The translations under genes and the position numbers were made by a program. DNA of 64,000 nt from Schmidtea nova (taxonomy: Eukaryota): assembly GCA_044892505.1 (NCBI GenBank), contig CM097882.1:26102001-26166000 (forward strand), read 5' to 3'. This document shows positions 29,102 through 60,489 of the stretch, in pieces; the first letter of the stretch is position 1; each line of letters opens with the position of its first letter. The notes beneath the pieces were generated by a model. The model saw only the letters and a list, made by a program, of their open reading frames with translations. It ran no database searches and was not told where the DNA came from.

Positions 29102-31097
29102 TAATATAATTTCACAGAATAGAATAAATTTGTATAGATTTTTTGACAATGTATATCACGAAGGAACTTTCTAAGATATTTTGCACGAAATAATTTGAAT
29201 GCCTTTGATCCATAAACATTTGTGAAACTTTTAATTAGAAAATGTATATAAAGCTTCAATAGCCTATATAAAAAGTGAACAACTTAGAATATTGAAGTAG
29301 ATTTGATATGTTTTCATTTTTATTTTTAAAGAGGAACATACTCCAAATCGGCCCTTGCATACCAATTATGGTTAATCATGTCTGATCTGACCTTTATTTA
29401 TTTGACGTTGAAAATTCGTGCAGAAAAGGAAAAACATACTGTGAATATGTAATTGTGTTCGCGGTTCATCTTTTTATATAATTATTATATTTATCAGCTT
29501 TAAATTTATTCATGTAAAAATTGCTTTTATCAATCATAGAAGCTCAGGATTGTTTTATTAAAATGCACTCATTTTATTAATTAGACTTTTCCTTTCCAAA
29601 CAATTCCAATTCAATAAACACAACTGAACTCTCCTCTACAGAAAAAGTAAATTTTATTTTCCACTCTTTTCTAGCTATTTTTAGGAAAGATTTAAGTCAA
29701 TCTCTATTATTATTCCAAGTTTTATGATAATTGGAATGGCATCAATTATTGTCCTAACAGTTTGTTGTGTGCTACATCAGACGTTTGTTATTGTTATTTT
29801 TCGATATTTTTTTAATATTAACAAAATTTAGGAAAAATGACACATCAGAAAAAATCTTTTTCAGTGTTAAAATTCAAAATCTCAACCAAGACAATAAATT
29901 TAATGTCCGGTTCGTTCTTTCGAAACCCGTTAAGGAATTGGCATAATAAACGATTTTATTTTTATTCTTAAATATTTTTATGAAATTTATTTTTATTTGG
30001 AATTCTAATAAAGTGTTAATTTGATTTTTTTATAGTTATATTTTAAGACTAATATTTAAGGCTACCATTTTTATGCACCACCCATTGTTCTATATTTACA
30101 TAGCATAAATTTTACTTCCTAAAAAAGAAAATTTTAAGCAAAGAAATAATTTTTGTTAAAATAGTAGTATTTTTTAAGAATTTTATTTCTCTTTTCGGTG
30201 GTGTTCTGCTAGCTGCGCAAAGATGTATGACATAGGATTTTGGCTCTCGAAAATTTGCCCGTTTGTGTATGGGTTGATTTATTTCTTAGTCATCCCAATT
30301 TGAATTATTTTTTTATACACATTCTAGAAAATTCATGTCTTAATCTATGTCTCTCTGATGTTCCTTGTTGTTACTGTACATTGTGGTTTAAAGTGAGCTC
30401 TGCATCAGAAATACTCTGCTTCCGGGTTCCTATCTGCCAATAGAAGGCCTTTTGCGTATGAGGATGAAATATAAGTAGCTTTTAATTCAGAGACGCAGTC
30501 TTAATTCTTTCCGTTCTCGCTCGTACCATGACTCTTGCATCTTCGAACATTTGCAATCTGTAATTGTGTTAGTCAGAATAATTATATTATTAAAAGTAAA
30601 GTAAAAGGATGATATTCTTTGATAATATTACGAAGTATAATTTCCGCATCGCCCTATTGACATACTATTATTCGACAATCATATAACACAAACAATTTAC
30701 TAAAATTCACAATGATAAGCAATTAAACACCAAAATATTTATTAAAATATGTTGGGCCCGCCAAATCACCTAAAAACACAATAAAACGAACAAAAGCATG
30801 AAACAATAAAGAAATAATAAAAATAAAAATAGCAAGAAAAACAAATTAAAAATAACAATAAAACGACAAATAATAATTGATAAATTTTCAGTAAAAGGAA
30901 ATTTTGAAAATAAACCGGTAAACAACCGCAAAAGGGGGCCTGAAATAAGAAAAAATAGAATTAAATAAAATAATAGTACAAATAATTAATTAATTACTTG
31001 GAAAATCAGGACCACCCAGCGAGAAACCGGAAAAGGAAACAAAATAATGTTTAGATTAGAATAAAATAATAAAAATACTTTGATGGACGGCCTGATC

Positions 31098-31135
31098 CTG
31101 ATTGGTCAATCCAACCAGACGGATCAGTATAAATA
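31098..31135 (+). promoter_or_regulatory. Putative LTR promoter (inverted CCAAT + TATA)
   Basis: CTGATTGG at ~31098 and TATAAATA at 31128-31135 (copy at 57600-57637); would imply a short U3 and ~2.7-kb R/U5. Confidence 0.55.
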
Positions 31136-32139
31136 CCGATCCAAAAATCATAACTCAACAGTTAAGACGTTTTACATTTCACTTACAATCAAGACTAAAC
31201 TTTGATTTAAGTAACATTTCATTTAACGAAGCGAGAATTTTTTGAAAAAACAGAATTCAAGTACGGAACGTAATTTTGATTGTTATTTTTTGTGTACCCA
31301 TGATTTTTGTTTGATTAAAATTTTATATGTAAACGTTATTTTATTTTTTCATTGATTATTGACACTTTAATGCATATAGCTATACTTCCTATGCTGCTCA
31401 CGCGGCGAGGGAGTCCGAGTCGTCGTCGTGGGGCCTCAGGGTCTCACATGGCGGTTCAACCTTTTTATTATTTAATTTAGATGTGAAGTTTTATCTAGAA
31501 AATTTGATTGAATTTTTAGTCTAATACAGACCATTTGCAAATTATTTAATTTTGGGTTGCACAACGGACGAAGGTCGAGGGCCAAATATGTAGATTGCGG
31601 AGGGCGGATGGATAAGGAGGGACACACCATGGTAGGGCATGCTCAGTCTTTAAATTTTTGGTAAATTGAATCGAAAGGGAACCTCCCGCATGGAAAACAG
31701 TGAGCAACAACTAAAATAAATTTGAATAATTTCGTTGGAATGAGAAAATCCAACGTAGTCCAAAGTCCGATTTCATTCGGAATCAGCATTTCGCCTACAA
31801 AATTTTAATATCGATAAATTCCGATCGCGATGGAATGCGTCGGAAAATCCAAATTAAATTAGTTACTAAAAATAGGCCGATCGTCGTATATGACGCGGTT
31901 TCCCAAGTTATTCTCCGATCGCTGTATATAGCGCGGAAATCTTGATTAAATTTGATAATTCCTGAATGCTGCATATAGCACAGGACTAATTATGAACTCT
32001 TTATTCCGACCGTGGTAGATCACGGCGGAGAGAAATAAAATTAATCTTATTTTTTAACGGTTGTGATTATATGCAACATAATTAAATTATCAACGAATTC
32101 CCCCTTAACTCATATTTATATCCAATAAATGTAATATAG

Positions 32140-32619
32140 ATGTCGACAGCTGAACTTACAAATCAATTAACGCAACTACGGAATATGGAGCAAGGGAATC
32201 TGCGGAATGAAAATATCTCGCAGCTCAAGGATCTACCAGCATCGATATTGCGAACCCTCAACTGCCAAATGTATAAGTGGCGACAGGGGTTTGGCCGAAA
32301 ATGCCCGTTCTCGATATGGACAGGAGGGCACGACCAAATACTCTATCGAGGAGGACCGAACTGGCCGATTTCTCAAAGGCCGTACTCAAACAAATTTGGC
32401 CGACTTGTCGTACTGATCAAGGACACCGATGGACAGACAAGCCGTGTAATTTATTGGGGGCATATCCCTCGTCGGGAACTATGCCAACTAGGCCTACACG
32501 AATTCCTGCCACGAAAACCGTTCGGCAAGGAGTGCCAGAAAGGACAACCCTCATTCTCTTGGGCTCGTCTCCGTCAGAAACCGATTAACAGCGAATTACA
32601 TAGCCTGTTTCGGAGATAA
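32140..32619 (+). CDS. LTR-encoded ORF-L1, 159 aa, unknown function
   Basis: ATG directly after TAG; GC-rich island in AT-rich LTR; identical in both LTRs; no family recognised. Confidence 0.5.
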   Translation: MSTAELTNQLTQLRNMEQGNLRNENISQLKDLPASILRTLNCQMYKWRQGFGRKCPFSIWTGGHDQILYRGGPNWPISQRPYSNKFGRLVVLIKDTDGQTSRVIYWGHIPRRELCQLGLHEFLPRKPFGKECQKGQPSFSWARLRQKPINSELHSLFRR

Positions 32620-32803
32620 GAACTGATTGTCAAATCTTTCAAATTGTGATTAAATATTAATATTCAGCAGTGTTTTTGTTATGTTGTTTTGAGTTTTGGT
32701 ATTGTGTTTTTAATAATTCATATTCGTAACCAAATAACCCTATGATCAGTTTCATTTTTCACATCATTTAATCATAGAGTAAATATCCTAAATAAATTAT
32801 AGA

Positions 32804-33400
32804 ATGAACCCAGATTTGATGCAGAAAGAATTGGAAAAGATGTGGCGGATTCGGAGAGCCCAGGATAAGGAATTGGGTCTCCTCAAGGCACAATTGATCA
32901 AAGCAGAGGCACAGATTGCATATTTGCGCAAAAGCTGGTTTGCTCCGGCCCGAATGAAGGAGCAAATCAGTAAAACCGAGCGCGCCCAACAGACTGCAGC
33001 CGATTACCAAATGGAATGGGAGGCTACAAAGATAGAACTCCGAAAATGCCTCCATTCCGTAACTGCCTCATACATCGAGAAGGAACTCAGAGAGCAAATC
33101 CGTCCGATTACGTACCAAGCTTGGACGGCAGAAAAGAAGACAGTAAACTCCATTGGAACGGATGTCCCCGATTTAATTGAAAGTCGGAATGAGACAGCTC
33201 CTCCAGCCAATTCAACCACTTCATCGGCGACTGCGCACCAGAAACGCAAGCGCATTGGGCAGAAACGGCGGAGACAGAGAAAATTATTTGCCCAGCAATT
33301 ACAAATCCAAGTCGATGGTCTACATCAGATGACTGAGGAAGCATTATTGACGGAGATTTTTCCTCCGGCGGGAGTTTTTACCGAACTCATTAAAAATTAA
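32804..33400 (+). CDS. LTR-encoded ORF-L2, 198 aa, coiled coil + basic NLS-like tract
   Basis: Heptad-rich N-half, KRKRIGQKRRRQRK; TAGA-ATG start context; AATAAA at the stop; identical in both LTRs. Confidence 0.65.
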   Translation: MNPDLMQKELEKMWRIRRAQDKELGLLKAQLIKAEAQIAYLRKSWFAPARMKEQISKTERAQQTAADYQMEWEATKIELRKCLHSVTASYIEKELREQIRPITYQAWTAEKKTVNSIGTDVPDLIESRNETAPPANSTTSSATAHQKRKRIGQKRRRQRKLFAQQLQIQVDGLHQMTEEALLTEIFPPAGVFTELIKN

Positions 33401-33874
33401 ATAAATTGTTGCATTGGCTTAAGAATCTCATCGTTCATTTAAATTGATTTAATTAACTTTACCAATGATTAAATAAAGATAGAACAAAAGTATAAATTCA
33501 GTTTACAAAATATCGAATAGAGATAATTAAATAATTAAGCGAGCATTCGTTGAAATACTTCTCGCAGACTGAGTAATGATAAAAATAAATTTTCTGAAAG
33601 ATTAACACGGAATACCTAAGGGGATGATTAAAGCGTAAGTCCTTCTAACGGCAGCAATGGACCCGTAAACATAAATGGGGAGTAGTACTAGCGATAGTGC
33701 TCACCTGCCCATCATTGTTTAACCACCCTGCGCATCACCAACTTGATTATATAGGGAAATAATCAAGGGCGCTTGAGTGTAAAATTGCAATTTTATGCAT
33801 GATCATGGATGAGGGATCCCTAGTCATTGTTAGAGCATTTTTCATCTAACCCCTCCATGAACCCAGCATAAATT

Positions 33875-35401: not shown

Positions 35402-35445
35402 TTGAGGCCAATGAGCCATATTGAATGACCTAGCTAGGCGTTATT

Positions 35446-35700
35446 GAGAGATTAAATTGAGGCCAAGAGAGCCATTTGAGAGATTAAATTGAGGCCAAGA
35501 GAGCCATTTGAGAGATTAAATTGAGGCCAAGAGAGCCATTTGAGAGATTAAATTGAGGCCAAGAGAGCCATTTGAGAGATTAAATTGAGGCCAAGAGAGC
35601 CATTTGAGAGATTAAATTGAGGCCAAGAGAGCCATTTGAGAAATTAAATTGAGGCCAATAGAGCCATGTGAGATATAAAATTGAGGCCAGAAGAGCCATA
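35446..35700. repeat. 32-bp tandem array x8
   Basis: GAGAGATTAAATTGAGGCCAAGAGAGCCATTT; last two copies diverged; partial unit at 35402-35420. Confidence 0.97.
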
Positions 35701-36310
35701 GTGAACTATAGATATATCCGGATAAATAGTAATAGAGGGAATATAGACCCATAGTGTAATCGTCGACGAGATTTAGAGTAGTGCGCACTAGTAGTTAAGA
35801 GAATGCGAGTAAAGCTGATTATGCAACCTTAAGTAAAGCATGCAAGGAGAATAATAAAAATTGGAGCTGACCGGAGAACCGGCAGAATGAGTAAAACGAT
35901 TGCTAGCAGGGAATAATGAGTAGAGATGATATAATAATGATAAACGAGTCAGAAAGACTCAGGGAATTAGAGCGCTCGAGCGACCAATAAATTGGGAGAC
36001 TGTGGGAAAAGTAATTGATTGGATAAAGTATAGATAATTATTACGACATAAATAGATAATTGTGACCAGTCTATAGATAATTTAAATAGACTAAAAATAA
36101 AGGGGAATCTGGGAATTGGGAAATAATGAAAACCCAGTAATAAGTAATCCCGAAAGAAAGGGAATAAAAGCGCGACGATAACAATAATGTATCGTTGAGG
36201 ACCTTTGTATTTTAGATATACAAATCAATCAAATCAATCAATCAAGCAAGAAGAATCAGAAAAACGATAAGAGATAGAACAGGAAAATTGAGTATACAAA
36301 AGTAATCCCC

Positions 36311-39300
36311 TTGAGAAAAGGAGCAAAGAGTGTCGTAGTAAAGCCAACGGAAAAGAAAGTCGATAGCAACAGTAATAAAAAAGACAAAACTAGTACTACA
36401 ACAAAATCAACAAAAAAGCAGAAAGCCGGCAAAGATAACCCACAAGGGAGTAAATCGAGGAAAATAATAAGAGATAAATCGATTACCGAGAACGATAAAT
36501 TGTCAATAATAAGCAACAGCTCAAGTAACAAAGAAAACCAAGCCGAACCCAAGGAGAACCAAGCAAGTGAAACAGAGAGCGACGAAACTAACAACGATAA
36601 TATCGAAGAAGTAGAAAACGAGGTAGAACCAGAGATAGAAATCAACGCGAGTGATAACGAAAGTATAATATCAGATAACGAAGGAATAAGAGAAACAGAA
36701 AGCGATTCAAGCTCGAGTAAAACGGAAGACGAACATAACAACGAACTAGAAACAAGAGGAAACGAAAGTAAAATAACTCAAGACAGCGGAATTGAAATGG
36801 GTGAACCAAGAGAAGAAATAAAGGATAAATTTTCAGGAGAACCGTTCAACGGAGATGCGAGTAAATTAGAAACCTTTTTAAAAGAATTTGGCATATTCGT
36901 GGAAGTATGCAAATGGAAAGCTGAAACAACGGTAAGCAGAATACAGTTATACTTGAAAGATAGTGCATTGGACCTATATTTGGAAGCAAAAAATGGTACC
37001 AATCCACCTACAAGCTGGACAGCGATAAAGGATTTTTTCCAACAAACATTTGGAATAAATAAAGTGCTGAGCGAGGCATTCATAGAATTCTCAATGAGGA
37101 AACAAAAGATGAATGAATCTAATGCGGTATACGCGAGCGAACTGAAAAAATTAGCAAAATCGGTATTCAAGGATGGAGGTCCAATAAACGAGGAGTTAAT
37201 GGCAGCCATCTTCATAGGAGGATTAAGAAGACCCGACATAAGAGCACAAGTGGGATGTCAAGGATGCAAAACCATAGATCAAGCGTTAGAAACAGCTAAC
37301 CGATTTGAATTGCATATGATAGGAAGCGAAGGCAGAATTTATTTAGCCATGGACACAGCGCAAACAGAACCAGAAGTAAATCTCAACAATCATATTCCAA
37401 ATTCGCAACAATTAAACCGACCACCCCCTCAACGAAGGAATGAAGGAAATAAAGTGCAAAACTTTGGAAACCAAAACAACTACAACCCTCAAGGACAAAC
37501 AAAACAATGTAAAACATGCGGGAAGTTGGGACACTGGCAGCAAGAATGCTATCAAAATTTGAATTGCGGAAAATGTGGAGTCAAAGGACACTCGGAAAGC
37601 AGATGTTCTACAATAATCTGTTTTAATTGCGGACGACCTGGTCACTATTCAAGAAATTGCGGACAAAAAAGTAATCAGCGAGGAAACTGGCAGAGTAATG
37701 GGAACCGACCAAATTACGGAAATCAAGCAAATACCGTAAACCGACCAGATTATGGAAACCAACAAAACAACAATAACAATAATCAGAACAAAACCACCCC
37801 CAAAGAAATACATTTAATGCAAGAAGTCCAAAGATTGACGGAACTTATAAACAATACGACGAGAGGAAATCCGCAAACCAATCAACAGCAAATTAGCATG
37901 ATGAGAAAAATAGAAAGCGAAAACGAACGATTGAATCGAGAAAGTCAAGCACGACACGCTCAGGAATGGGCAAGAATACAAAGAGAGGATGAACAAAAAC
38001 AGCAAGAAAGAGAACGACAACCTCTAAGAATTAACATGCTAAGAGCAACAAACCAAACAGACACTCGCGAGAAAGAAACCACACTGGAAATGAATTCGAT
38101 AAACCCGAATCCAGCCGACAACGAAAGTCGAAAAGAAATAGTACAAAAAGATGAAGAAGTAGAAAAAGAAGCAGAAAAGGGAGAGGAAACCGAGATAAAC
38201 CAGGAAGAGAGAAGGAAAATTTGGAAAAAAGGAATGATGGTAATCATGCCCAACGACCATATGTTTCGATTCCAATATAACGCAAAAGAAAAGGTGGAAA
38301 TACTATTCAACAAAGTAAACCAGATGATTCCAGGAGTAACAAAGCTGCCCAGAGAAGCGTTCTTACAAATAGAGGGTGCACCATCAGTAAAATTGAAATT
38401 AACGGATATATGGGAAAACATGGGAGTAGTAGAAACAAAAAGAAATGTGATGAGAATTAAAGAAATAGAACCAGAAGAAATTCCACCACCAATACGTCAC
38501 GAAACCCGAATCCGGCGAATATTTGAAGGAAAAATGATAAGAAGACGTTTAAAAGAGATAGACGAGTTGGGAAAGAAAATGGAAAAAGTCAAAATAATAG
38601 AGGACAAGAGCGAACCAACACCAGAGATTGACAAAAACGAACCAGAACCAACGGAGAATATACAAGGAGAAACGAACCAAACAGCACATATTAATATGTT
38701 AAGAAATACCACCAGAGAGTTTTCCGATGAAGAAGAAGATAGTGATATCAGTAGCCTAGCAGGAGACATATTAAAGGAATCCGAAGACGAAAATAAAGAG
38801 ATGAAAGTAATAAAGACCTCAGAACCTACACAGATAAAAGTAGATGAAATCCAGAAATTACTAGATAACTCGCTAGAAGTAATATATAACGAAGAGTTCA
38901 TGGACAAGAAACAATATCGGAAATTCATGAAAGCATTACTACAAATGAACTACAAAGAATGGTTACAAGACCGGGAAGTAGACATGTTGAATCGATACGT
39001 AGGGAAATTAATAGAGGAACCACTCCTCAATTACACCATCTCAATAATAATAAATACGTCTACACCAAGAATCTGGATCAAAACTCCATTTACAGACGAT
39101 ATCTACAGATGGGTAGAGGATAGGCTAGGGAGCTCATATAGAAACAAATTCATCTATTCGCAGAATAGACTCGTAAAGAAAAGAACTCACTTAGTAGAAA
39201 CAGGTATATGGCCAGGAGAAATAACCCTGTTATCAATATGTGATGAAAAAGAAGAAGAGAACCTACAAGAAGTTGCAAGGGAAGCAAACGCGTGCTTCGA

Positions 39301-42300
39301 AAGGAGAATAAAACCTCGGTTAGAATACGAAAAAGAACGAGTCTTACGAAAGAATCTAAATTTCCTGATAGAACAAATCATACCACAAGTCAAAAAACAT
39401 AGAAAAGAATTAATGAGAAGCGAATACGAGAAATTGAAACGATGTATTGAGTGCATACGTGACACAAGCCACACGAGATGGTCACAGATCTCACACGACA
39501 AATTAATCGCAAAAATGGGAAAAACAATGTTCAGACAAGGGAAAATAACAGATCTAAAAATTTCAGTAGAATTACCTAATGAGGACACCAAAGAAATTGA
39601 AGTGGTAGCGGATTGCACCATTAAAGAATTAATAAATGTCATCAACGAGACACTAGTGCAAAGAGAACCAGAAGACGAATGGGAAGACGACATAATCATA
39701 CAATACAACGAACATGTATTATGGGATCACGATGAGAGACGATTATATAAAATCGGTATATGGGATAATCACCAAACAATCCACGTTAGCAGAATGGACG
39801 ATACACCCAGAGAAACTGCTAAAGATGAGAAAAGAGAACGGGAACGACGGAAAGAAGTTGTGCGCAAATTACAACAAATAGTAGATATCTATCGAAATTG
39901 GCGAATTTGGCCAGAATGGGAAAATGTATTAGAAGAACTCAATCTCAACAGACGAATACGAACACCCGTAGAAAAACAATGGAACGAGAAAGGAAAATGT
40001 TGGGAACCAAAAGAAGGGGAATACGAAGAAGAATATAAAAGAGGAATTGAAGATGACTGCGAACCAGAGATAGGAAGGGTTTGCATGGTGACAAGGAAAG
40101 CTACGCCAATAGACCTAGATGGACCAGAAACAGCGGCCATGTGGTTAGAAAGGGAAAAGCAAAAAACGGAAGAATTCGTCGAAATATTAAAAACTAATGC
40201 GCACGGTAAGAGAAAATTAATAAAGGGTCTCGCAGATTTTTTCGCGGTAAATGGGGAAGATATAACATGCTTGCGTAAAGTAGCAAAAGCAATCACGGAA
40301 TATAAAAGAGTTAACGAGTGGTGCCCGGAACAACTAGACCATGTAATTAGGAAATGGAGAAACCAAGAATTCTCGCAGGAAATTCCACAGAAAGTACATT
40401 TAAGAATAATATACCCAAACAAGGATAAGGAAGAGTTGTGGGTAGGAATAGCAGAAAAAATTCGAGATATTAAAAAGAAATTGAGATACGAACCACCATT
40501 CCATTTACAACACCAAGGACGATCATTAGATAACAGTTTGGAAATCGGAATAACGCCAGCACAATTAGACCTCATGAATACCTTGACAGTAGAAGCAATA
40601 GCGGGTCAACCATTGAAACGTAAAGAAGAAAACCATAAACTACACGGAAGTATAAGTACGCCAAGCCCGATGAAATCAGTACTAACACCAGGGACAAGTT
40701 CAAGACGATCTGAGACAACACCCAGAGGAACCAGAGAAAGAACTCCACCACAACCATACGACGTGGACGAAATTTTAACGGATAGCGACGATATGATAGA
40801 GGAATTAACCGAATTAACAAAGGAAAAAGAAGATAACATTTTCGAAAGAATACAAGAACTACCTACGACAATACAAGTAACCAACACCGGAGAAGCAGAA
40901 GTTGAAGAAGAAATAATAATAGAAGAAGTAAACGATTTGACAGAAGACGAAACGAGAGGAGCGAATGTCGAAAATGTACAATTAACGCAAGAAATGGAAA
41001 GATGGTTAGAGGAAAGAGCTAACGAACCAAGAGATGTCACGGAAGAAACCGGACGGGCAACAAGATTTGTGGAAACAGGGACAGGAATGGATAGACGACA
41101 TAGAGGTAGACCCAAGACAGACCCAGCGAATATAGTTGTAAGAAATAAAGACGAAAAGAGACAAGATCAATGGGAATTATGTTTAAGGAAATTAAATAAA
41201 ATTGCGGAGATGAAAGAAAAAGAGACAACACCAATATGTCAGGGGGAGGAATGGATATCGAAAATAATAATGGAAATATTGGCAATAATTGATCCGGAAT
41301 TAAGAAAATACTGGCGTATAACTGAGATAAGCGAAAAGGCGAAGTCACTACACAGCGCAATCGCACCCATCTTACCGGAATTCATAAAAGAAAAGACGAA
41401 GTCAAATCATTTAGACTGGCAAGGAACCACTACGTTAATAAAGAAATTGACAGAAGGAGCGGAAACAGATAATAAATACGTAATAGCCATCGCATACACG
41501 ATCTACAATCTGTTGACACTGAGTAGAGGTCGACCAAAACCCACTGCATTAGAGAGACATATAAAAAATACCGCAAAGATTATAGCTAGAGAAATAGAAC
41601 CTTACGTCATTAACATAGGAGGATGGGAAACATTTATAAAAGCTAACCAGAAGAAAACGCAAGCGAAGAATATGAAAAAGAAATTTGAAAAAATATTGGA
41701 AGAGTTAGAAAAAGAACAAGCAGGAACAGGAAACGCGAAGTCATCAATGAATCTGAGTGCTATCATAATGATGATGTTGATATGGATGATTAGCACCGAT
41801 AGCGCAACAGCATTCGAAGTGTTTGATTGCGACCAAATGAAGTTAGGAGAAAAGTATTCATTGAGAGGTACGGAGCAATGCAAAGATGCGACTCCAGTAG
41901 AGTTGCAGAAGATTAAAAAAGAACAATGGTACCACGTGTATCAAGAAGCAGAACTCATAAAGACAATGGTGAATGAATGTAAAGTGCAGAAGACGAGATT
42001 CGCATTCTACTGCGGGAGAGGACATTATTCAGCAATTGTCATGCCAGGAACGGAAAGAGAACCAATCGTGTTACAAGGAGAAGACTGCGAAGCACTGTTT
42101 AAACATGGAGAAGTAACAACAAGAGATAAAATCAAGATAAGAGGAAAGCCAGGAATGATGATGCAACAAACCTACTATGTAGCAGGACGGATTACGGGAG
42201 GAGAAGGATATTGTCAAGGAGAAACCTACCCGATATTCGGAGTACCCGCAACCAACCTAGTAGTAATGGATACGTATATAGTCGAATTAAAAAGCTATGA

Positions 42301-45300
42301 AGCATTCTTCGAACCAACAACGGGAGAAATGAAAACGTTACCCATGTGTAAAATCGACAGGAGCATGTGTCAAACGGGAATGTCAACATTAGTATACAAA
42401 CCAAAGGTGAACGAATGTCAATTACAACTGCTACAAGGAGCACAGTTCGACGAAATCCAAGGAAAAACGTTTCAGGAAGAAGACGACGACGACAAAGCTA
42501 GAGCAAAGCATCTCAAGGAAGCTTTAGAGAATAAAAGACAACTGAAACCAGATCATAGAGAAAAACGAATAGAGATGAGAGCCACACCAACAGTGTTGAT
42601 AACCACAAATCAAGATGTGGGAATGAGATTCATAAAAGGGAAAGCAACCCTTAAGTGTAGTACAACGGTATACGAAACGAATTACCCAGGAATATATGTG
42701 TCAAAACAAGAAGTGCCAAATGCGAAACCCAAAATCGACACAATGGATATCAAACTACACTTGTATGTGAATAATAAAATGGATTTCCTATTCCATAGAG
42801 GACAAGCCTCATTACAAAAAGTGTACTACGATCTAATAAATAATGATTGTATACTAAATCGAGAAATACTAAAGACAAAATTGGCCGTAGCAATTACGAA
42901 TCCCGATAGCGCGATGCCATTATTACCACTGAGAGAAGGACATTTCGGAAGAGTGGTTGGAGAAGCAATGTATGTATACATCTGCGAAAAGACACACGCA
43001 TCGCTAGCAGCAACAACACAGTTGAAACCTGGAACCTGTACAAATGAGTTAGAAATCGATTACAAAGGAAAAGTACGATACGTTCAACCAGTGACGAGAA
43101 TCATCAATCCACCAGGGTTTGAACCAAATCCATTCAACTGTAGTAATGCGTATGGACCGCTTTATCAGAAACCAGATGGTAAATGGGTTATGTTCCCAGG
43201 AAGATCCGAAGTGATAGCACCAAGAGAATTCGAGCTAATGCAGTTGTCAAAGGATAGGCAATTCAGCGACGTGGATGTCTCAAACAATGGAATATATAGC
43301 CCAAAGGATTTAGAAGCAGCAAGGCAGAATATATTATTCCCAGCGAGAAGAGAAGCATTACTGTCAAATATCGTAACGATAACAGGAGGAACGGATTATC
43401 GAGAAGGACCGAATTATGAACTATTGTTGTCACCAGCACATTTCAAAAAAGCCACAGAAAACATGATGAAAGCAATGTGGGGAAGATTTCTGATATTCGG
43501 ACAAATGATGGCTGGAATACTGGGGGTTATATTAATCATCCAAATCGTCAGAGTAATAATAACACAAATGTTAGCATGTTTTGACATCTACAAGAGAGAA
43601 AAGAAAGTGAATTGGAAAATGGTAGTAGGATTTTTACCATTCCTTGCGAAAACGATGGTGTTACACGGTCACTCAAAAGATATCCACCGAATAAAAAGAC
43701 TCCTGAAGATATTAGCAAAAATGAAGGGAACAGATGAAGAAGTAGGACGCAAATTTAAAAAGATAATGAACGACGAACAAGCAAGACAACAGCTCAAGAG
43801 AGAAAGAAAAGGTTTATGGGAGAGGATGAAAGGATATAAAACCCAAAATGATTCGAGTGACGACGATGATGACGATGACGACTATAAGGGAGGACAAGTG
43901 TATAAGAACCAAGCACCACAATACATCGAAAAGAATCCAGCCGACGCATGGAAATGTTACGCACCTCCACCAACCATGTATCAAGAACCACTACAAGGAG
44001 GAAAAAATAGCACGATGCAAATGATGCCAATGACAAATGTATATCCCATGATACCAGAAGATTATAAAATGAGAAGATGTAGAAGCGTAGATCCACAAGG
44101 AGATACACACACGATCGCAGTAATGTCATCAAACACAGGTGCAGTATTAACCACGACAATAGAGATTAACGGAAGGGAAATCGAAGCAATGATCGACACG
44201 GGAGCAAACATTTCCGCCATCGACATCAAATGGATACCACAAGAGCAAAGACGAGAAATAGAAAGGACAAACGTCCATGTAATTGCATGTAGCAAAGAAG
44301 TTGTAGAAGTAGCAGGAAGATGGTGGGTAAAAATACGCCATTTAAACACGGAAATCGATACGTACGTAGCTGTCATACCAGCATTAAGCGTACCTTGCAT
44401 TATCGGAACAGATTTGATGCCAGCACTATTTAAAGAGATTGTAATCGATCTCGGAACAATGAGACTAAAAGATCGCACAGGACAAATATGCGCAATAGAA
44501 GCCAAAGTGACAAGTTCAAAGCAAATGATAATACCCGCAAGAAAGGAGAAAATATGTTACGTAAAAATAGATCCGACAATCCAAGGGGATATGATTTTCG
44601 AACCAAGTAAGAGATTCGAGAAAAGAAAAGCGTTGCCAATGGCAAGAGGACTAGTTAACATAAACGATGATGGAGAAATCCCAATAAACGTAGTAAACTT
44701 CGATGAAGAGGACAAAATAATATACGAAAACGAAAGATTAGGTAAATTAACCCCAATGATGGATATCGAACTGCCAATAGAAGGAGCAGAGAAAGATAAA
44801 GAACCAACCTGGAATATTGATAGTGAATTATTAAATGAGGATCAAAGGAAGCAGCTAGAAAAACTCCTGATAGAGTATAAGGATATATTTGCAGCATCCG
44901 ATTTAGATCTAGGAACATGTGATGTCACACTACATACAATACCATTAACAGATGAAACACCAATTGCATTAAGGCCGTACAAATTAGCGGAAGCACAGAA
45001 AGCAGTAGCAGAAGCAGAAGTGAAGAAAATGTTGGATGCAGAAGTAATCGAACCAAGTTGTTCACCCTGGCAATTTCCAGTGGTAATGGTAAAGAAAAAA
45101 GACGGAACACAGAGATTCTGTATAGATTACCGAAGATTGAATACAGTGACAAAAAGAGATACTTACCCATTACCGGACATCAATGAAATGTTATTAACCT
45201 TACAGGGAGCAGCATATTTTACGTCGTTAGATCTGAAAAGCGGATATTGGCAAATAAAAATGAAGGAAGAAGATAAAGAGAAAACTGCCTTTACCATCGG

Positions 45301-48300
45301 TAGAGACCTATATCAATTTCGAAAGATGCCATTTGGATTAACGAACGCACCAGCATCATTTCAGAGATGCATGAATTTCGTCACCCACGGAATAAAGCAG
45401 TGCATGGTCTACATCGACGACTTATTGATTTACTCTAGTACATTCGAACAACACATACAGGATATTCGAGATGTATTCGTTAGACTTAGACAATGGAAGT
45501 TAAAACTCAAGCCATCAAAATGCGATTGGGCAAAAGAAAAGGTTACATTTTTAGGACATATAGTGTCAGCAAAAGGAAAAGAACCGGATCCTAGAAATAT
45601 CGACAAGGTAAAAGAATGTCCAGTACCAAAAACAATAACCCAAATACAAGAATTTCTCGGACTATGTGGATACTATAGAAAGTTTATAAAAGATTACGCT
45701 GATATCGCAAAGCCTATACAGGAACTGGTAAAGAAAGATGTATCCTTTATATGGGGAGATGAACAACAAACAGCCTTTGAAACATTGAGAGATAAACTGA
45801 TAACCGCACCCATATTAGTACACCCAGACTTTAAGAAGCCATTCTTACTTGCAACGGATGCAAGCGGATACGCAGCGGGAGCAGTATTAGGACAATACGA
45901 TGACGAAGGAAAAGAACGTGTAATCGGATATTATAGCCGGACATTCAAAAAGCATGAGAAAAATTACTCAGTAACAGAACGGGAAGCATTAGCGATTATA
46001 CTAGCAATAAAACATTTTAAATATTTATTATGGGGACACATCATCTGCATAACAACAGATCACCAACCGCTTGTATGGTTAGGACAGCACAAGGAAACAT
46101 CCAGTAGATTAATGCGATGGGCAATGCAGTTACAGGAGTACTCACCAGACATAAAATTTAAATCAGGAAAAGCGAATGCGAATGCAGATTGTATGTCAAG
46201 ACTGACATTTCCGGAATTAACCGATCCTGATGTACAACGAATTTGTGTGTTAATAGCGGAAGATTTGGATTTTAGTGAGTTAAAGAAGGATCAACAGGAA
46301 GACAAAGAATTAGGACAGATCATAGAGTTCCTAACATCTCGAAATAGGGAGATATTTAAGGATAATAAGGAATTAAAGGAACATATAGGAAAATATCAAC
46401 ATCGCTACATAATAAATAAAGGATGGTTATTAATACAAGACGGGGAAAAGAGATTGATGTGTTTACCGGAAAACAGAAGGAAAGAGATAATGATCCAATA
46501 CCATGATGGGAAATTGGGAGGTCATATGTCCGAGAAAAAGACCATAAATCGTATGAGACAAAAATATTATTGGCGAACAATGGAAGAAGATATAAAGGAA
46601 TGGATTAAAAATTGTCTAACTTGCGCAACCAGAAAGGATAGTGGGAAGAAATGGAAGAACCCACTACAACCAATGCCGATACCAGCAGAGCCAATGACAA
46701 CTATAGCAATGGACGTAATAGGACCATTACCAGAAAGTTTAAACGGAAATATTTATATATTGGTGATAACGGATTATCTGACGAAATTCCCGGAAGCATT
46801 TGCCATGCAAGACCAAAAAGCAAAAACCGTAGCAAAGATTCTAGTAGAAGACATATGTTGCAGATACGGAACTCCAAAACAAATACTCACAGACCAAGGA
46901 ACTAATTTTATGAGCGAGTTATTGAACGAGGTGACAAACTATTTCCGAATAGCAAAATTGAGAACTTCACCATATCACCCGCAAACGAATGGACAAACGG
47001 AGCGATTCAACGGCACATTGATTAGAATGTTATCAAACTACGTCAGCAGACACCAAACTGACTGGGATGAATACATAAAATTATGTTTAATGGCATACCG
47101 AATGTCGATACATGCAGCAACAAAACTAAGCCCATTTCAACTTATGTATGGAAGAGAATGCAACATGCCCATAGATTTAGAGTATCAGCCACCATTATCA
47201 CAATATATGGAAGACGACGACTACGTAACCAAATTCAAAGAAAGAATGCAGGAAATATGGAAAACGGCAGAACTCAACATTAAATTTTATCAGGAAAGTT
47301 ATAAGGACTTACACGACCAGAAGAAAAATGTTAAAGCGAACGATCTAAAACCAGGAGATTGGGTGATAATAGAAACTCCCGAAATAATACCAGGAACAGT
47401 TAAGAAACTCCAAAGACCTGGAAGAGGACCTTATGAAATTATATACAAAAAGGACAATAATGTCAAAGTTAAGCTAATAAATCGACCGTTAATACGACCC
47501 ATATATGTAAACACCTGCAGATGTAAGAAGGTGCCTAAAACGATAACTACAACACCAGAAAATCGAATAATAACTAGATCACAAACAGCCAGGATAAATA
47601 TGCTCAGAGCTAATGTAACTGAAGACGACAAAGCAGAAATAAGGCAAAAGGAAATCAGAAATAAAGAAATCATATTGAAGGCGAGAGAGATAATGGGAAG
47701 ATGGCATGTTAGAGACGAAGCAGGCATATCAAGGGATATTAGACATATGATTAGCCGTTACGCACAAGGATTACCAACCGAACCAATTATTTCTGAATTA
47801 TTGGAAAAAATCCCTGAAATACTCTTATTGAAAGATGTAGGAGGACAACCAGCCTTACATAATGCGATAGAGTGTAAAAACATGGAAAGAGCAAAAGAAT
47901 TCCTAAAAATCGCAAAAGAAACAAACCAAAACTTAGACGTAGGGAATCGGGAACAAGAAACTCCATTAATGACAGCCGCAATCCACCAAGCAGATAAAGA
48001 AATGATAGATCTATTGATAAAAGCTCATTTCAGTTGGACAGAAAGAGATAGAGAGGACAAAACAGTGCTAAATCACGTAATATGGAGTTCTCACCAACCA
48101 ATGCTGAAATACATAATAGCTAACTCCACTTGGGAGATAGACGAACTAGTTAAAGGAGATATTATCAAAGAGGCAATCAAAGTCGGTAAATGCAACACGA
48201 TCCGTAAGTTAATCAAATGGAAACGACCAGAAGATGATACATGGGTCCTAGACATAAACGAAGTATACAGCGAAGGACAAAACGCACTGTTAAGATACCT

Positions 48301-51300
48301 TTTGAAATTTACTTGTGATCAGAAGACATTACTAACCTTATTAGACAGAGGAAACATAAACATCACAAAGAATGAAGAAGAATACAAATTCGATAAAGAG
48401 AAGGAAGCCTTATTCAATAAGATTAGGAAATGGTGTGCGAAACCACTTGATAAACTAATAACATACAAAGACATAAACAATTTTAACGAGAAATACCAGA
48501 CAATAGTAAGTGAGTATGAGGAAATAATAAAAATCTTAAACCATCCCGAAAAATGCAAACAGGTTTTAGAGAAAAAAGAAAGAGAAAGTAACAAGAAACT
48601 CACACCACTCTTCAAAGCAGAAGCACCATACCAAGCTAGACTAGATGCGATACAAGAAAAAGCAAAAGAATTGTTACCGGAATTCGAGAATAGTAAACAT
48701 GCACTGGAAATACTCGGCGCATTAGTTGAAAAAGTACACGCATACGCAAAAGGAACATACAATGGTAACGACATAGTAATAATAAAAAAGGAGATGCCAG
48801 TAACATTCCTATTACCAAAAGACGGAATAATGCCCATACATAGAGCTCTACGAAATGGCAAAGATAGGAAAGTAATGGAAATTGCAAGAGTAATGCTAAA
48901 TTGCGGAAGCAATATGAATATGATAGACGAGAAAGGAGATACACTTATGGTATTTGCAGCAAGGGCCAAAACGAAAACAAAGGTATTAGAAGAACTATAC
49001 AAAGCAGGTGCAGGACTTACAGGAAAGACAGATAAAGATAATTCGATATTGGATGTAGCATTATTAACACACAATTGGGAAATGGTCAATTTCATTAAAA
49101 CCGTCCCAAATCAGGAAGAAATAGATCACCTAACTGATACGGTCAAGAAACCCAGTGTACTAGCAATGATGAACAACGTCGAACTAACAGAATCAATACT
49201 TACGTGGATAAATCCTAATACTAACGAACCAGCATTCAGGATTAATAAATTTACAGAACATAACCAAAACTGGTGTATAAGAAGTGCCTTAATAACGTAT
49301 AAATGGCCAGAGATATTGAAGATGTTTATGGAAAGAAAGGATCTAAGAATCACAACCAGCCCGAAAGAAGAAAAATACACAGGCAAATGGAAAGAATTGA
49401 TGAAGACATACATCAACAATTGGATCAAGGCCAAAAAGGAAATCTTGGAACATAAATCCACTAACAAAGTAATACCGGAGCAGGTAGAAACACAAGAATT
49501 TGAGGCAAGTAATCTAACGACATTAGCATATGCGAAACTAATAGAAGAAATAAATGTCGAGGACGACATTTTCGACGAACCAGGGGGAGATGACAACACA
49601 GATAGTGACGACGGTAACAACTCAGATAACTCAAGCGATCACGAACCACCCGATAAAGAGGAAAACGAGAGAAAAGACAAGAAACGAGACAAAGAAGAAA
49701 AGAAAAGTGAAGACGAAAAACAAAGAGATGAAGATGGAGAACAAGGAAAAAACGACCAAAGAGATAAAAATGACACCCAAAGAACAGGTTATAAATCAAC
49801 CATAAAACCATTCTTCAAACCAGAATTACTATTATTAACAGTGATTTTAACGTTAATTAACCCAAGTCAAGGAATGACATGTGAAGAAAGGGCAATAATA
49901 CAAATAAAAAACGCAAAAGGAATCGAACGAGTATGTTGGTCGAAAAAGGACAAAATCACGGAACAAAATAGGCCGATGGATTGCAGAATCTCAAAACACG
50001 AGCAAGAAATCATAGAGATCAATGACTTAGATCTAGATACCTGGTACAAAATATGCACCGTTAGAAAACAAAAGCATCCAAGATCACACAACACAATCGC
50101 ATGTGCAAAATACCAAACACCTAAAGCAGCCATGACAATACAACAGTCACCCAAAGGAGATTACATCCTCGGAAAATGTGGAAGAACAGAGACACAGGGA
50201 ACAGAAAACAAAAAACCCCCGGCAATAGATAAGCAAACAACACCAACTATACGAATTACAATAAAGAGGCCCGAAGCAAGAGTGGCCACAAACGAAACCG
50301 AAAGAGTGTCTTACCAAATGGAAGTATTATGCTTAGCACTCATACTAATAATAATAAAACGATTAGAGGAAGGAATAGAAATTGAAACTATGACAATAAC
50401 AGAAGTGGAAGATACACAGAACACTAACATAAAATGTTGGGCGAGGAATGACGAAGAAATCGGTGTAAATGAAATAAGGAAAAGTCGAAAACCCACAACA
50501 AACAAAGTAATTAAAGTATCCGAAGTAAGAGCAGACAAGACGTACAAACTATGCCTACTTGAGAAAGAGAGGAACAAGAAAGGTACCACAAAATGTAAAA
50601 CATTCCAACCTGGAGAGGTAATAAAGTTCCGAAGGAGAACGAGGAAGAGAAATAAACAAATCAAGCAGAAACTGAACATAACATTAGAAATAAAAGAAAT
50701 AGAACCAAATGTGAAAGGAGTATGCTGGAGGAAGTACGAAAAGGAAACAAATAAAAGAACGACACCACAATGTCAAACAAGCACAGGAGCAACAACGATA
50801 CAAATAAAAGGTCTAGAAAGTAAACAAACCTACGAAATATGTTTGGTAAAGAAAAATGATCAGATAACGATAAACGACCTAGAATGCGGAATACATACAA
50901 CTTCATCCGGAACAAGAACCAAAACGTTAACACGGAAAAATAAAAGGAAACAACGAAACAAAGAAAAACCGAAGTACACCACTACCTTTAAAAATAATAA
51001 ACAACCAATAAGCCAGGAAGCCACGACAAAACCCGAGAAAAAGACATCAGCAACTCTGACATTATGGAAAATAGAGAATAAAACATTAGAAATATGTTGG
51101 ATAATAGTTCAGAAACCTATAAGAAGACAATCAAGAGAGTGCAGAAAAACAAATAAAGAAATCAAGATCGAAAAACTACAATTTAATAGCGAGTATGAAG
51201 TATGTGCAATAGAAAGAATGGACGCACTAGGAAACCAACAAGAAAGATGCGAAACCTACTATACACCAGCGAACGCAACATCAAAAGGAATAACAAGGAA

Positions 51301-53758: not shown

Positions 53759-53852
53759 ATAAATAAAGCGGAAAACTGTAAATATGTAAAAATAAAAACA
53801 AGAAAAATCCAAAAAATAAATGACAAGTCGAATGTATATATTATTGTAGAAA

Positions 53853-55229
53853 ATGGACAGAGAAGAACGAATAATCGAAATTTTGAGACTAGAAAACAGA
53901 AAATGGAGTAAGAGGCTCACATGCGGGAAGTGTAACAATTTATTACGAGAACCCAGACAAACGATATGTGGATGTAGAATATGTACAAAATGTATACAAG
54001 AATTGGATGCAACAGGAATAACAACATGCCCAGAATGTAAAGAAGGAGGAATAGTGTTGGACGAAACCAGAACGGACAAAGCAACCCAAAGAGAAATTAT
54101 GAGCACCACAACGGAGTGCGTAAATACACCTTGTACATGGCAAGGACAAATAAGTAATCTGGAAAACCATATGGAAAAATGCGAGGAAAAGAGAGCCGAA
54201 TGCGAGAAATGCCAACAGACAATAACTCTAAAGAAGAGAGAACAACACAAGGAAGAATGTAAAGAAGAAGAAATCGCATGCGAGTATTGTGAAGCCCGAG
54301 AAACAAGGAGAAAAATCGAAGAAGAACACTTGAATATAACAGAGGAGAAAGTATGCGGACAATATGTAAGTAAATGTCCAAACAATTGTGAAATAACAGA
54401 AGAAATAAAATTACATGAACATTGGAAACTATGTACCGAAAGGCCAAGAGAATGCCCATATAACAAGCATGGATGCAAGGAAAAGCGGACGCGAAAAACA
54501 ATGCAACAACATCTAGAAGAAGCAGCACTAACGCATGTGGAAATGACAAACGAAACGACTAAAGAAACGGAACGGACAATTCAGAAATTAGAAAAAGAAG
54601 TAGAATCACATAAAATAATGATGAGTTTACTACTAGAAACAAGAGAGCAGTTTGAACTAACTCGCGAAAGAATGGAAAAGAAAATAATAGCCATAGAAGA
54701 ATTAGGAAAAGGAATGAAAATACAATATAATCAATTAATACGAGAAATTGACGAAAGAAGGGACTTACCAATCGCACCTTACCTATGGAAAGTAACAGAT
54801 TTCAGAGACAAATTAGCAGAAGCCAGAAATATGACGAAAACAGCAGTAATAAGCCCACCATTTTATTTATGGAAAAACGGGGTTAAAATAAGATTGAAAG
54901 TATACCCAAATGGAGACGGAAGAGGACAAGGAACACACGTGTCAATATTCTTCTCACTATGTAAAGGAGAATACGATGACCTAATAAAATGGCCCTTGAA
55001 AATAGGAGTCATTATAAGAATCAAAAGTACGGGAAAACCAGTAGAAAAGTTCTTTGAAACAGACAAACATTCGAGTACGAGCGAAAAGCCAACGACAGAA
55101 TGCGGACTAGCAGCAGGAGAACCAATGTTTATAAGGAAAGAAAACCTATGGGAGCAACTATATACAGACACGCTATACATAGAGATGGAGAGGCATGAGA
55201 AAGCAGACAGAAAAGGATGGTTGGCGTAA
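53853..55229 (+). CDS. Intronless full-length TRAF homologue (RING, TRAF Zn fingers, coiled coil, MATH)
   Basis: CGKC..CGCRICTKC..CPEC RING; C..C..H..C fingers; YLWKVTDF..SPPFY..YPNGDGRGQGTHVSIFF..GEYDDLIKWP MATH. Confidence 0.96.
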   Translation: MDREERIIEILRLENRKWSKRLTCGKCNNLLREPRQTICGCRICTKCIQELDATGITTCPECKEGGIVLDETRTDKATQREIMSTTTECVNTPCTWQGQISNLENHMEKCEEKRAECEKCQQTITLKKREQHKEECKEEEIACEYCEARETRRKIEEEHLNITEEKVCGQYVSKCPNNCEITEEIKLHEHWKLCTERPRECPYNKHGCKEKRTRKTMQQHLEEAALTHVEMTNETTKETERTIQKLEKEVESHKIMMSLLLETREQFELTRERMEKKIIAIEELGKGMKIQYNQLIREIDERRDLPIAPYLWKVTDFRDKLAEARNMTKTAVISPPFYLWKNGVKIRLKVYPNGDGRGQGTHVSIFFSLCKGEYDDLIKWPLKIGVIIRIKSTGKPVEKFFETDKHSSTSEKPTTECGLAAGEPMFIRKENLWEQLYTDTLYIEMERHEKADRKGWLA

Positions 55230-55342
55230 TGAAGGAAGTAACCATGTAAATAAAATGTATAGAAACAATATGAATTAACAAATAATCAAAAACAATAAAA
55301 AATAAAAAATGATTAAATATTCTTTTATCTGTAATTATAGAA

Positions 55343-57251: not shown

Positions 57252-58641
57252 TGTTGGGCCCGCCAAATCACCTAAAAACACAATAAAACGAACAAAAGCA
57301 TGAAACAATAAAGAAATAATAAAAATAAAAATAGCAAGAAAAACAAATTAAAAATAACAATAAAACGACAAATAATAATTGATAAATTTTCAGTAAAAGG
57401 AAATTTTGAAAATAAACCGGTAAACAACCGCAAAAGGGGGCCTGAAATAAGAAAAAATATAATTAAATAAAATAATAGTACAAATAATTAATTAATTACT
57501 TGGAAAATCAGGACCACCCAGCGAGAAACCGGAAAAGGAAACAAAATAATGTTTAGATTAGAATAAAATAATAAAAATACTTTGATGGACGGCCTGATCC
57601 TGATTGGTCAATCCAACCAGACGGATCAGTATAAATACCGATCCAAAAATCATAACTCAACAGTTAAGACGTTTTACATTTCACTTACAATCAAGACTAA
57701 ACTTTGATTTAAGTAACATTTCATTTAACGAAGCGAGAATTTTTTGAAAAAACAGAATTCAAGTACGGAACGTAATTTTGATTGTTATTTTTTGTGTACC
57801 CATGATTTTTGTTTGATTAAAATTTTATATGTAAACGTTATTTTATTTTTTCATTGATTATTGACACTTTAATGCATATAGCTATACTTCCTATGCTGCT
57901 CACGCGGCGAGGGAGTCCGAGTCGTCGTCGTGGGGCCTCAGGGTCTCACATGGCGGTTCAACCTTTTTATTATTTAATTTAGATGTGAAGTTTTATCTAG
58001 AAAATTTGATTGAATTTTTAGTCTAATACAGACCATTTGCAAATTATTTAATTTTGGGTTGCACAACGGACGAAGGTCGAGGGCCAAATATGTAGATTGC
58101 GGAGGGCGGATGGATAAGGAGGGACACACCATGGTAGGGCATGCTCAGTCTTTAAATTTTTGGTAAATTGAATCGAAAGGGAACCTCCCGCATGGAAAAC
58201 AGTGAGCAACAACTAAAATAAATTTGAATAATTTCGTTGGAATGAGAAAATCCAACGTAGTCCAAAGTCCGATTTCATTCGGAATCAGCATTTCGCCTAC
58301 AAAATTTTAATATCGATAAATTCCGATCGCGATGGAATGCGTCGGAAAATCCAAATTAAATTAGTTACTAAAAATAGGCCGATCGTCGTATATGACGCGG
58401 TTTCCCAAGTTATTCTCCGATCGCTGTATATAGCGCGGAAATCTTGATTAAATTTGATAATTCCTGAATGCTGCATATAGCACAGGACTAATTATGAACT
58501 CTTTATTCCGACCGTGGTAGATCACGGCGGAGAGAAATAAAATTAATCTTATTTTTTAACGGTTGTGATTATATGCAACATAATTAAATTATCAACGAAT
58601 TCCCCCTTAACTCATATTTATATCCAATAAATGTAATATAG

Positions 58642-59121
58642 ATGTCGACAGCTGAACTTACAAATCAATTAACGCAACTACGGAATATGGAGCAAGGGAA
58701 TCTGCGGAATGAAAATATCTCGCAGCTCAAGGATCTACCAGCATCGATATTGCGAACCCTCAACTGCCAAATGTATAAGTGGCGACAGGGGTTTGGCCGA
58801 AAATGCCCGTTCTCGATATGGACAGGAGGGCACGACCAAATACTCTATCGAGGAGGACCGAACTGGCCGATTTCTCAAAGGCCGTACTCAAACAAATTTG
58901 GCCGACTTGTCGTACTGATCAAGGACACCGATGGACAGACAAGCCGTGTAATTTATTGGGGGCATATCCCTCGTCGGGAACTATGCCAACTAGGCCTACA
59001 CGAATTCCTGCCACGAAAACCGTTCGGCAAGGAGTGCCAGAAAGGACAACCCTCATTCTCTTGGGCTCGTCTCCGTCAGAAACCGATTAACAGCGAATTA
59101 CATAGCCTGTTTCGGAGATAA
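58642..59121 (+). CDS. ORF-L1 copy in 3' LTR
   Basis: Translation identical to 32140-32619. Confidence 0.5.
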   Translation: MSTAELTNQLTQLRNMEQGNLRNENISQLKDLPASILRTLNCQMYKWRQGFGRKCPFSIWTGGHDQILYRGGPNWPISQRPYSNKFGRLVVLIKDTDGQTSRVIYWGHIPRRELCQLGLHEFLPRKPFGKECQKGQPSFSWARLRQKPINSELHSLFRR

Positions 59122-59305
59122 GAACTGATTGTCAAATCTTTCAAATTGTGATTAAATATTAATATTCAGCAGTGTTTTTGTTATGTTGTTTTGAGTTTTG
59201 GTATTGTGTTTTTAATAATTCATATTCGTAACCAAATAACCCTATGATCAGTTTCATTTTTCACATCATTTAATCATAGAGTAAATATCCTAAATAAATT
59301 ATAGA

Positions 59306-59902
59306 ATGAACCCAGATTTGATGCAGAAAGAATTGGAAAAGATGTGGCGGATTCGGAGAGCCCAGGATAAGGAATTGGGTCTCCTCAAGGCACAATTGAT
59401 CAAAGCAGAGGCACAGATTGCATATTTGCGCAAAAGCTGGTTTGCTCCGGCCCGAATGAAGGAGCAAATCAGTAAAACCGAGCGCGCCCAACAGACTGCA
59501 GCCGATTACCAAATGGAATGGGAGGCTACAAAGATAGAACTCCGAAAATGCCTCCATTCCGTAACTGCCTCATACATCGAGAAGGAACTCAGAGAGCAAA
59601 TCCGTCCGATTACGTACCAAGCTTGGACGGCAGAAAAGAAGACAGTAAACTCCATTGGAACGGATGTCCCCGATTTAATTGAAAGTCGGAATGAGACAGC
59701 TCCTCCAGCCAATTCAACCACTTCATCGGCGACTGCGCACCAGAAACGCAAGCGCATTGGGCAGAAACGGCGGAGACAGAGAAAATTATTTGCCCAGCAA
59801 TTACAAATCCAAGTCGATGGTCTACATCAGATGACTGAGGAAGCATTATTGACGGAGATTTTTCCTCCGGCGGGAGTTTTTACCGAACTCATTAAAAATT
59901 AA
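59306..59902 (+). CDS. ORF-L2 copy in 3' LTR
   Basis: Translation identical to 32804-33400. Confidence 0.65.
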   Translation: MNPDLMQKELEKMWRIRRAQDKELGLLKAQLIKAEAQIAYLRKSWFAPARMKEQISKTERAQQTAADYQMEWEATKIELRKCLHSVTASYIEKELREQIRPITYQAWTAEKKTVNSIGTDVPDLIESRNETAPPANSTTSSATAHQKRKRIGQKRRRQRKLFAQQLQIQVDGLHQMTEEALLTEIFPPAGVFTELIKN

Positions 59903-60489
59903 ATAAATTGTTGCATTGGCTTAAGAATCTCATCGTTCATTTAAATTGATTTAATTAACTTTACCAATGATTAAATAAAGATAGAACAAAAGTATAAATT
60001 CAGTTTACAAAATATCGAATAGAGATAATTAAATAATTAAGCGAGCATTCGTTGAAATACTTCTCGCAGACTGAGTAATGATAAAAATAAATTTTCTGAA
60101 AGATTAACACGGAATACCTAAGGGGATGATTAAAGCGTAAGTCCTTCTAACGGCAGCAATGGACCCGTAAACATAAATGGGGAGTAGTACTAGCGATAGT
60201 GCTCACCTGCCCATCATTGTTTAACCACCCTGCGCATCACCAACTTGATTATATAGGGAAATAATCAAGGGCGCTTGAGTGTAAAATTGCAATTTTATGC
60301 ATGATCATGGATGAGGGATCCCTAGTCATTGTTAGAGCATTTTTCATCTAACCCCTCCATGAACCCAGCAAATACAACAAATAATTGAGTCAGTGGCAAA
60401 CAGTTTTTTTAATTTCTCCGGTTCTCTTTCATAATTCTTACCTCGTCTATCCATGTATGTTCTTAGAAACAGTCTTATATCTATAATAT

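Follow-up and report, generated by a model that had tools for sequence, protein, structure and literature searches.

The closest described relatives of the locus analysed here are the planarian gypsy elements Burro and GYPSM1, which resemble it in a length of about 30 kb, one ORF of ~5,000 aa, three CCHC knuckles, a Ubl and a BCL2-like motif ahead of an Env that lies in frame between gag and pol, ankyrins, and TRAF/MATH cargo (PMC6431247, citing Jurka 2007 and Grohme 2018). For Burro elements, Env homology is placed between BCL2 and PR (PMC6431247); the in-frame position of env between gag and pol is called the first such case, and the section describing it gives no processing model. The term 'signal peptide' has 0 occurrences in the text of PMC6431247. 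BURRO1 is expressed and PIWI-controlled (PMC8532177). Burro1, an element of this kind, also has an anti-death cargo, the B-IAP (Lee et al. 2026, via PMC13465017), which is a RING+BIR protein, unlike a Bcl-2-like domain.

Three groups of viral proteins offer further comparisons. Flavivirus anchor C doubles as the prM signal sequence, and signal peptide peptidase (SPP) frees HCV core from a helix of this type. At anchor C and core-E1 alike, one helix forms the end of the capsid-side protein and serves as signal sequence for the glycoprotein that follows in the polyprotein (PMC7601889). The upstream protein of the Flaviviridae is, however, a capsid released by NS2B/NS3 or SPP, whereas the element has a Bcl-2-like domain ~1,650 residues into the chain, with no release site found. 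In the foamy virus Env leader and in MMTV Rem/Env, the Env signal region is reused as a membrane or released protein, but these leaders form the N-terminus of a separate Env, unlike the host domain captured within the Gag-Env-Pol chain of the element (PMC3705266). The viral Bcl-2 homologues, comprising the BH3 binders M11L and F1L and the signalling proteins N1L, A46, A52, B14 and K7, are likewise highly divergent Bcl-2-derived domains in a virus-like setting (PMC5691641). The element differs from these in that its predicted anchor would be generated by signal peptidase at the ER, and no sequence link of its domain to either viral group was shown.

The Bcl-2-like domain and its place are already known from Burro, and viruses are known to use a helix with such a double duty. 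Among the papers listed by our literature searches, none addressed a signal peptide or an anchor at this Bcl-2–Env junction; the supplements of Grohme 2018 and Lee 2026 may bear on novelty.

Anatomy of the element and its junction

The window is the whole stretch of DNA that was analysed, 64,000 nucleotides from Schmidtea nova (contig CM097882.1, positions 26,102,001 to 26,166,000). Based on the order of Pfam domains, the LTRs and the target site duplication, it holds a giant LTR retrotransposon of 29.6 kb of the gypsy kind. With env in frame between gag and pol and a BCL2-like motif before env, the element is of Burro type by anatomy.

30750..33868, forward strand: 5' LTR (TG...CA), 3,119 bp, with 1 mismatch to the 3' LTR and a 4-bp target duplication AATA
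57252..60370, forward strand: 3' LTR, paired with the 5' LTR
36278..53275, forward strand: ORF1 polyprotein of 5,665 aa between stops, with its first Met at 36797
44078..47677, forward strand: protease, RT, RNase H and integrase (Pfam)
49814..49873, forward strand: second signal-peptide-like segment, after the ankyrin region
53850..55229, forward strand: ORF2, TRAF-like with RING, zf-TRAF and MATH (Pfam)

Since the LTRs differ at only 1 of 3,119 bases and AATA flanks both sides, the insertion is very young. ORF1 comprises Gag with CCHC knuckles, spacers, the Bcl-2-like domain, Env, PR, RT, RNase H, IN, ankyrins, and FN3-like and TM repeats; Pfam matched the knuckles, the Monjiviricetes fusion glycoprotein, the protease, RT, RNase H, the integrase and the ankyrins. 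Compared to Burro and GYPSM1 (PMC6431247), the window element has its MATH domain in the downstream ORF; family E (see below) has BIR, for which none of the 10 window proteins scanned showed a match. All residue numbers of ORF1 are counted stop to stop.

Further features were observed around this core. Each LTR holds a frame of 202 codons (32792-33400 and 59294-59902) without a Pfam match and with a weak relative in family C. A PBS-like stretch at 33870-33892 presumably resembles a tRNA-Pro primer site, and the 5' leader carries tandem repeats of 29 bp and 32 bp (35134-35731). Beyond the ankyrins (49814-53100), six further hydrophobic segments alternate with repeats that contain Cys and weakly resemble FN3 (Pfam fn3 E 0.019). 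Two accessory ORFs at 55313-56404 and 56444-57049 comprise a coiled coil and a small protein with a single TM. At the start of the window (1-6125), a perfect inverted repeat of 1,255 bp (1-1255 and 4871-6125) occurs together with 120-bp repeats, and between its arms lies a frame labelled by eye as a hAT-like transposase (1835-3295).

Six families share the junction between the Bcl-2-like domain and Env, namely A (the window), B, C, D, E and F. Over the aligned segment the identity to A amounts to 63% for F, 29-31% for E and 16-21% for B, C and D. All 127 genome matches that were scored, out of 2,511 candidates, span the whole junction with 96-100% identity, and the reading frame is unbroken across it in intact copies. 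C' is a decayed non-autonomous subfamily (L097-L105), from which ~6 kb including Env and Pol were lost. Family E (L109-L123) is Burro1-like, with MATH inside ORF1 and an additional TRAF ORF; many of its copies are internally deleted, and its BIR ORF of ~399 aa is present in high copy number (150 scored of 1,295 candidates). Beside one family E copy, ORFs resembling Polinton/Maverick capsid proteins were noted by eye (L111:1-10000).

40076..40090, forward strand: protease-like site RVCMV, the nearest upstream of the Bcl-2-like domain; one of the domain-junction motifs selected by eye for the PWM described below
40391..40603, forward strand: possible ubiquitin-like domain on the same piece as the Bcl-2-like domain, assigned by eye and from PMC6431247, which places a Ubi2/SUMO-like domain before BCL-2
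41195..41635, forward strand: degenerate Bcl-2-like domain, aa ~1640-1786, the best place of the sister-family profile (hhalign probability 78.8, E 1.7e-5)
41465..41476, forward strand: TDNK, aligned with the NWGR of BH1
41591..41635, forward strand: BH2-like motif EIEPYVINIGGWETF, its P and GGW unchanged across all 19 alignment rows
41627..41740, forward strand: charged linker of 38 aa, the fastest-changing part with 38% identity to family F
41741..41812, forward strand: hydrophobic helix and c-region (aa 1822-1845), predicted internal Env signal peptide and possible anchor, with the predicted cut after 41812
41806..41848, forward strand: left boundary of a recent exchange of Env between families A and F
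41813..43567, forward strand: Env, a Monjiviricetes-type fusion glycoprotein ectodomain (14 Cys, 1 sequon) with TM (43490-43567)

The 40391-40603 segment itself gave no Pfam ubiquitin match; an earlier ubiquitin-like copy at 39545-39802 matched weakly (E 0.079).

The preliminary description had assigned the segment 41252..41812, corresponding to W1659-A1845 of ORF1, to a Bcl-2-like domain with a BH2-like motif, ~35 charged residues and a hydrophobic segment directly before mature Env. The motif, the hydrophobic segment (uncharged run SSMNLSAIIMMMLIWMIST, 41741-41797), DSATA (41798-41812) and the Env start FEVFDC (41813-41830) are all present at the described places. The stated start does not hold, as the domain begins earlier, near aa 1640. 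The linker comprises 38 residues, only 16 of which are charged. The BH2-like motif as such is correct, except that Ile before GGW is a minority allele: of 30 loci examined, the window's own among them, the pattern matched all but one, and 27 of these 29 copies carry Lys. The order of GGW, 57-67 aa, the predicted site and [YF]DC is kept in all six families, down to 16-23% identity, and is therefore more than chance.

The predicted internal signal peptide and the fate of its helix

Env lies where it had been described, matching Pfam PF24664 with an E value of 6.5e-70. Its TM is followed by basic residues, which would bring Pol back to the cytosol. A stretch REKR in a variable Env loop (42557-42568) is taken by us as a furin-like site; B, C and D carry basic clusters at the same place.

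The ten residues preceding the uncharged run of 14-21 residues carry a net charge of +1 to +3 in 6/6 families. At the end of the helix, the residues at -3/-1 are A/A, V/T, A/A, G/A, S/G and C/G in the individual families, with the site three residues before [YF]DC in every one. Among the copies of family A, 27/29 keep ATA and the remaining two still show A at -1. Taken by simple sequence rules, the helix can with good confidence be regarded as an internal Env signal peptide, and cleavage is likely to occur at the bond after ATA. The exact bond is less sure, since alternative sites 1, 3 or 5 residues earlier in family A also satisfy the (-3,-1) rule. The cut after TDSATA as originally proposed can accordingly be kept as a prediction, the site after SATA having counterparts that fit the rules in 6/6 families, with a reservation about the precise bond.

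What happens to the helix after such a cut decides whether the Bcl-2-like piece would be membrane-anchored. The earlier idea that one helix serves both proteins is a reasonable default of topology, and the helix co-segregates with the domain; it sits at the right position for a Bcl-2 tail anchor but does not look like one, given the short core, the acidic end and the lack of a homology signal to host anchors. Based on these data, the odds that the helix is retained as membrane anchor of the Bcl-2-like piece appear even.

The co-segregation was observed twice. Over Env (41813-43700, compared with L154-L161), A and F showed 97-100% protein identity and low silent divergence, with flanks saturated or nearly so: pS was 0.29-0.34 over Env (aa 1846-2470), 0.58-0.81 outside Env and 0.72 over the helix. 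This cannot be explained by constraint alone, since A and E, with 90% protein identity over a stretch of Env, showed a pS of 0.87 there. Judged by these silent sites, the Env cassette was recently exchanged between families A and F. The maximum likelihood boundary was determined at aa 1853 (1848-1864 for silent sites, 1843-1857 for all sites), and placing it ahead of the helix is worse by 6.6 lnL, with only 8 informative silent codons in the helix; the helix therefore appears to have stayed with the Bcl-2 side. The same holds true for C', where the Bcl-2-like domain and the helix were kept and run in frame into the final TM of ORF1, the join falling a few codons past the predicted cut (8/11 loci fetched). 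C' probably represents a single event, seen in decayed copies. Both breakpoints could also sit there since the start of Env is the first conserved stretch past the divergent linker.

The strongest competing explanation, although rather unlikely, is that the helix is only the signal peptide of Env, from which SPP or another protease then frees the Bcl-2-like piece, destroying the helix or releasing it, so that this piece becomes soluble as HCV core or mature flavivirus capsid; precedents of this kind are described in PMC7601889 and PMC3705266. It would agree with the composition of the helix, which contains polar residues in a short core (best 19-mer hydropathy 1.51, the Env TM reaching 2.55) and has an acidic end in A (DSATA) and F. 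It would also agree with the lack of homology to host anchors. In the host-like Bcl-2 genes of the genome (L042, L056, L059), a linker of 25 residues leads to a TM and a terminal RK, and the profile of the element behind BH2 did not set these tails apart from shuffles (273, 265 and 455 of 1000) or from other internal helices. In the host Bcl-2 family, the TM lies on a separate exon (PMC7022251). Moreover, signal-like helices occur not only here but also after the ankyrins in A and after the integrase in B and C; the layout therefore needs no Bcl-2-specific reason. Against a soluble piece stand the two cases in which the helix went with the domain, the Env swap and C', and the linker of A and E, which is without a protease-like site. 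A PWM trained on 12 junction motifs chosen by eye found no comparable site between aa 1275 and the helix in A and E, with best scores of 3.0 in linker plus helix and 4.7 in aa 1275-1783, compared to 10.8-17.8 at the training sites.

Family F carries T at -1, a less common residue at this position of a signal-peptidase site. This would suit a helix acting as an uncleaved or slowly cleaved signal-anchor, with the Bcl-2-like domain remaining on Env as a cytosolic leader, as in foamy virus, where Env is not cut co-translationally by signal peptidase (PMC3705266). Such an arrangement is improbable, considering the valid (-3,-1) site exactly three residues before [YF]DC throughout the six families and the conservation of ATA, or at least of A at -1, among the A copies.

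Ancestry of the Bcl-2-like domain

Searched directly, the domain of the window gave nothing significant in Pfam, PDB or protein databases, and a profile of A and E against PDB found Bcl-xL as best Bcl-2 protein only at E 1.0, ranked behind unrelated proteins. The claimed Bcl-2 likeness was nonetheless borne out indirectly, via the sister families, and a BCL2-like motif had already been published for Burro (PMC6431247). In a genome-wide Pfam Bcl-2 search other element families passed the cut-off, copies of B and C reaching 33.6 and 34.7 bits compared to 31.4 bits, and five of the six rows of alignment A1 matched, the row of the window being the exception. A profile built from B, C, D and C' alone matched Bcl-xL at E 6.7e-6. 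Applied to 147 tiles (the A polyprotein and part of E), the top six matches of this profile all covered the Bcl-2-like domain, with the match spanning aa 1640-1784. None of 1000 shuffles reached the real score (15.7, best shuffle 14.7), the lead amounting to one bit in A and to four in E. Comparing profile with profile, hhalign gave a probability of 78.8 and an E value of 1.7e-5 over BH1-BH2. In the Atlas, the family C domain adjoins Bcl-2 clusters (0.93, with a recognition value under the Atlas threshold). A single-sequence structure model reached a pLDDT of only 43.6; in a Foldseek search with this low-confidence model Bcl-2, A1 and Bcl-xL took ranks 1-4, with non-significant values (E 0.3-0.84, TM 0.16-0.21).

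Compared to family E, the domain shows 31% identity without gaps over 152 aa, and compared to F 69% identity with a pN of 0.17 and saturated silent sites; at the sequence level it is under strong constraint. Altogether, the domain is very probably a degenerate Bcl-2 homologue by ancestry, the homology being transitive through the sister families. That it is no longer a Bcl-2 fold in the window's family and merely a helical spacer with a relic BH2 would explain the direct searches without match, but is highly improbable in view of the ungapped identity to E, the constraint and a profile match covering aa 1640-1784.

A compact host-like Bcl-2 family (L036, L038, L042, L050, L056, L059) scores highest with the element profiles, with up to 19 bits compared to 7 for L031 (profile A6). 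It is a possible donor lineage.

One-chain model and possible function

The element encodes Gag, Env and Pol as one chain. A separate production of Env, from a spliced RNA or from Met 1824, with an ordinary N-terminal signal peptide unrelated to the Bcl-2 piece, would fit the Met at the start of the uncharged run in A and E and the own env ORF of other gypsy-like elements (PMC6431247), but is hardly credible, as F has Leu in place of this Met and B lacks it, no AG between 41619 and 41812 has >=7 pyrimidines in the preceding 12 bases, and the frame is continuous in intact copies.

For the one chain, the following course is proposed. The helix (aa 1822-1845) would insert into the ER with its N-side cytosolic and thread Env into the lumen, and the Env TM would return Pol to the cytosol. 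Signal peptidase would cut after ATA, and the helix would keep the upstream chain in the ER membrane. At first this chain would be the entire Gag precursor, a tethering that would bring particle assembly to the Env-bearing membrane. Protease cleavage near aa 1271, where RVCMV would form the N-end, would then yield a piece of ~570 aa ending in the captured degenerate Bcl-2 domain. For this overall model of one Gag-Env-Pol chain with an internal signal peptide, whose helix is kept as anchor of the captured domain, we estimate a probability of about 0.5. A more far-reaching and doubtful version would assign three jobs to the one helix: threading Env, tethering the Gag precursor in place of a matrix signal, which would explain the gag-env-pol order, and holding the Bcl-2 domain in a membrane of the ER or the particle, where this domain would block host cell death via a groove without NWGR in a 1:1 ratio with Env, the latter being a swappable cassette from the signal-peptidase site onwards.

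The canonical NWGR is indeed absent, as had been described, with TDNK aligned at its place in 29/29 copies. Based on the HMMER alignment to Bcl-xL and alignment A7 of the families, the counterparts are TDNK (A), TDSK (F), EPAK (E), DKDK (B), NRDR (C) and DENR (D); the BH1 Gly is replaced in all six families, and a basic residue at the Arg position is kept in all six. The BH1 Gly is required for canonical BH3 binding. The case of A179L G85A bears on this need (PMC5691641). The further proposal that the loss of NWGR points to a signalling antagonist instead of a BH3 binder does not follow, since myxoma M11L binds Bak, Bax, Bim and Bid despite having no detectable sequence similarity to Bcl-2 (PMC5691641). 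A TM anchor is present in nearly all anti-apoptotic viral Bcl-2s, N1L being without one (PMC5691641), and the anchor, if anything, would point away from a signalling antagonist. The Pfam poxvirus Bcl-2-like family matched none of the six rows of alignment A1; one Atlas cluster near family C contains 11% Poxv_Bcl-2-like members, which is a lead only.

With regard to function, we weakly infer that the domain most likely dampens host cell death, via a remodelled groove or another surface, and at the ER rather than at mitochondria. An anti-death role falls slightly short of an even chance, another signalling or scaffold role is a fair way below that, and a solely structural or assembly role is unlikely.

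Burro elements are high-copy planarian retrotransposons, and their junction offers a testable model of how such a chain is threaded and cut. The Bcl-2-like domain is a second candidate for anti-death cargo besides the published IAP. Should the anchor prove real, this would represent a Bcl-2-type protein whose tail is produced by signal peptidase.
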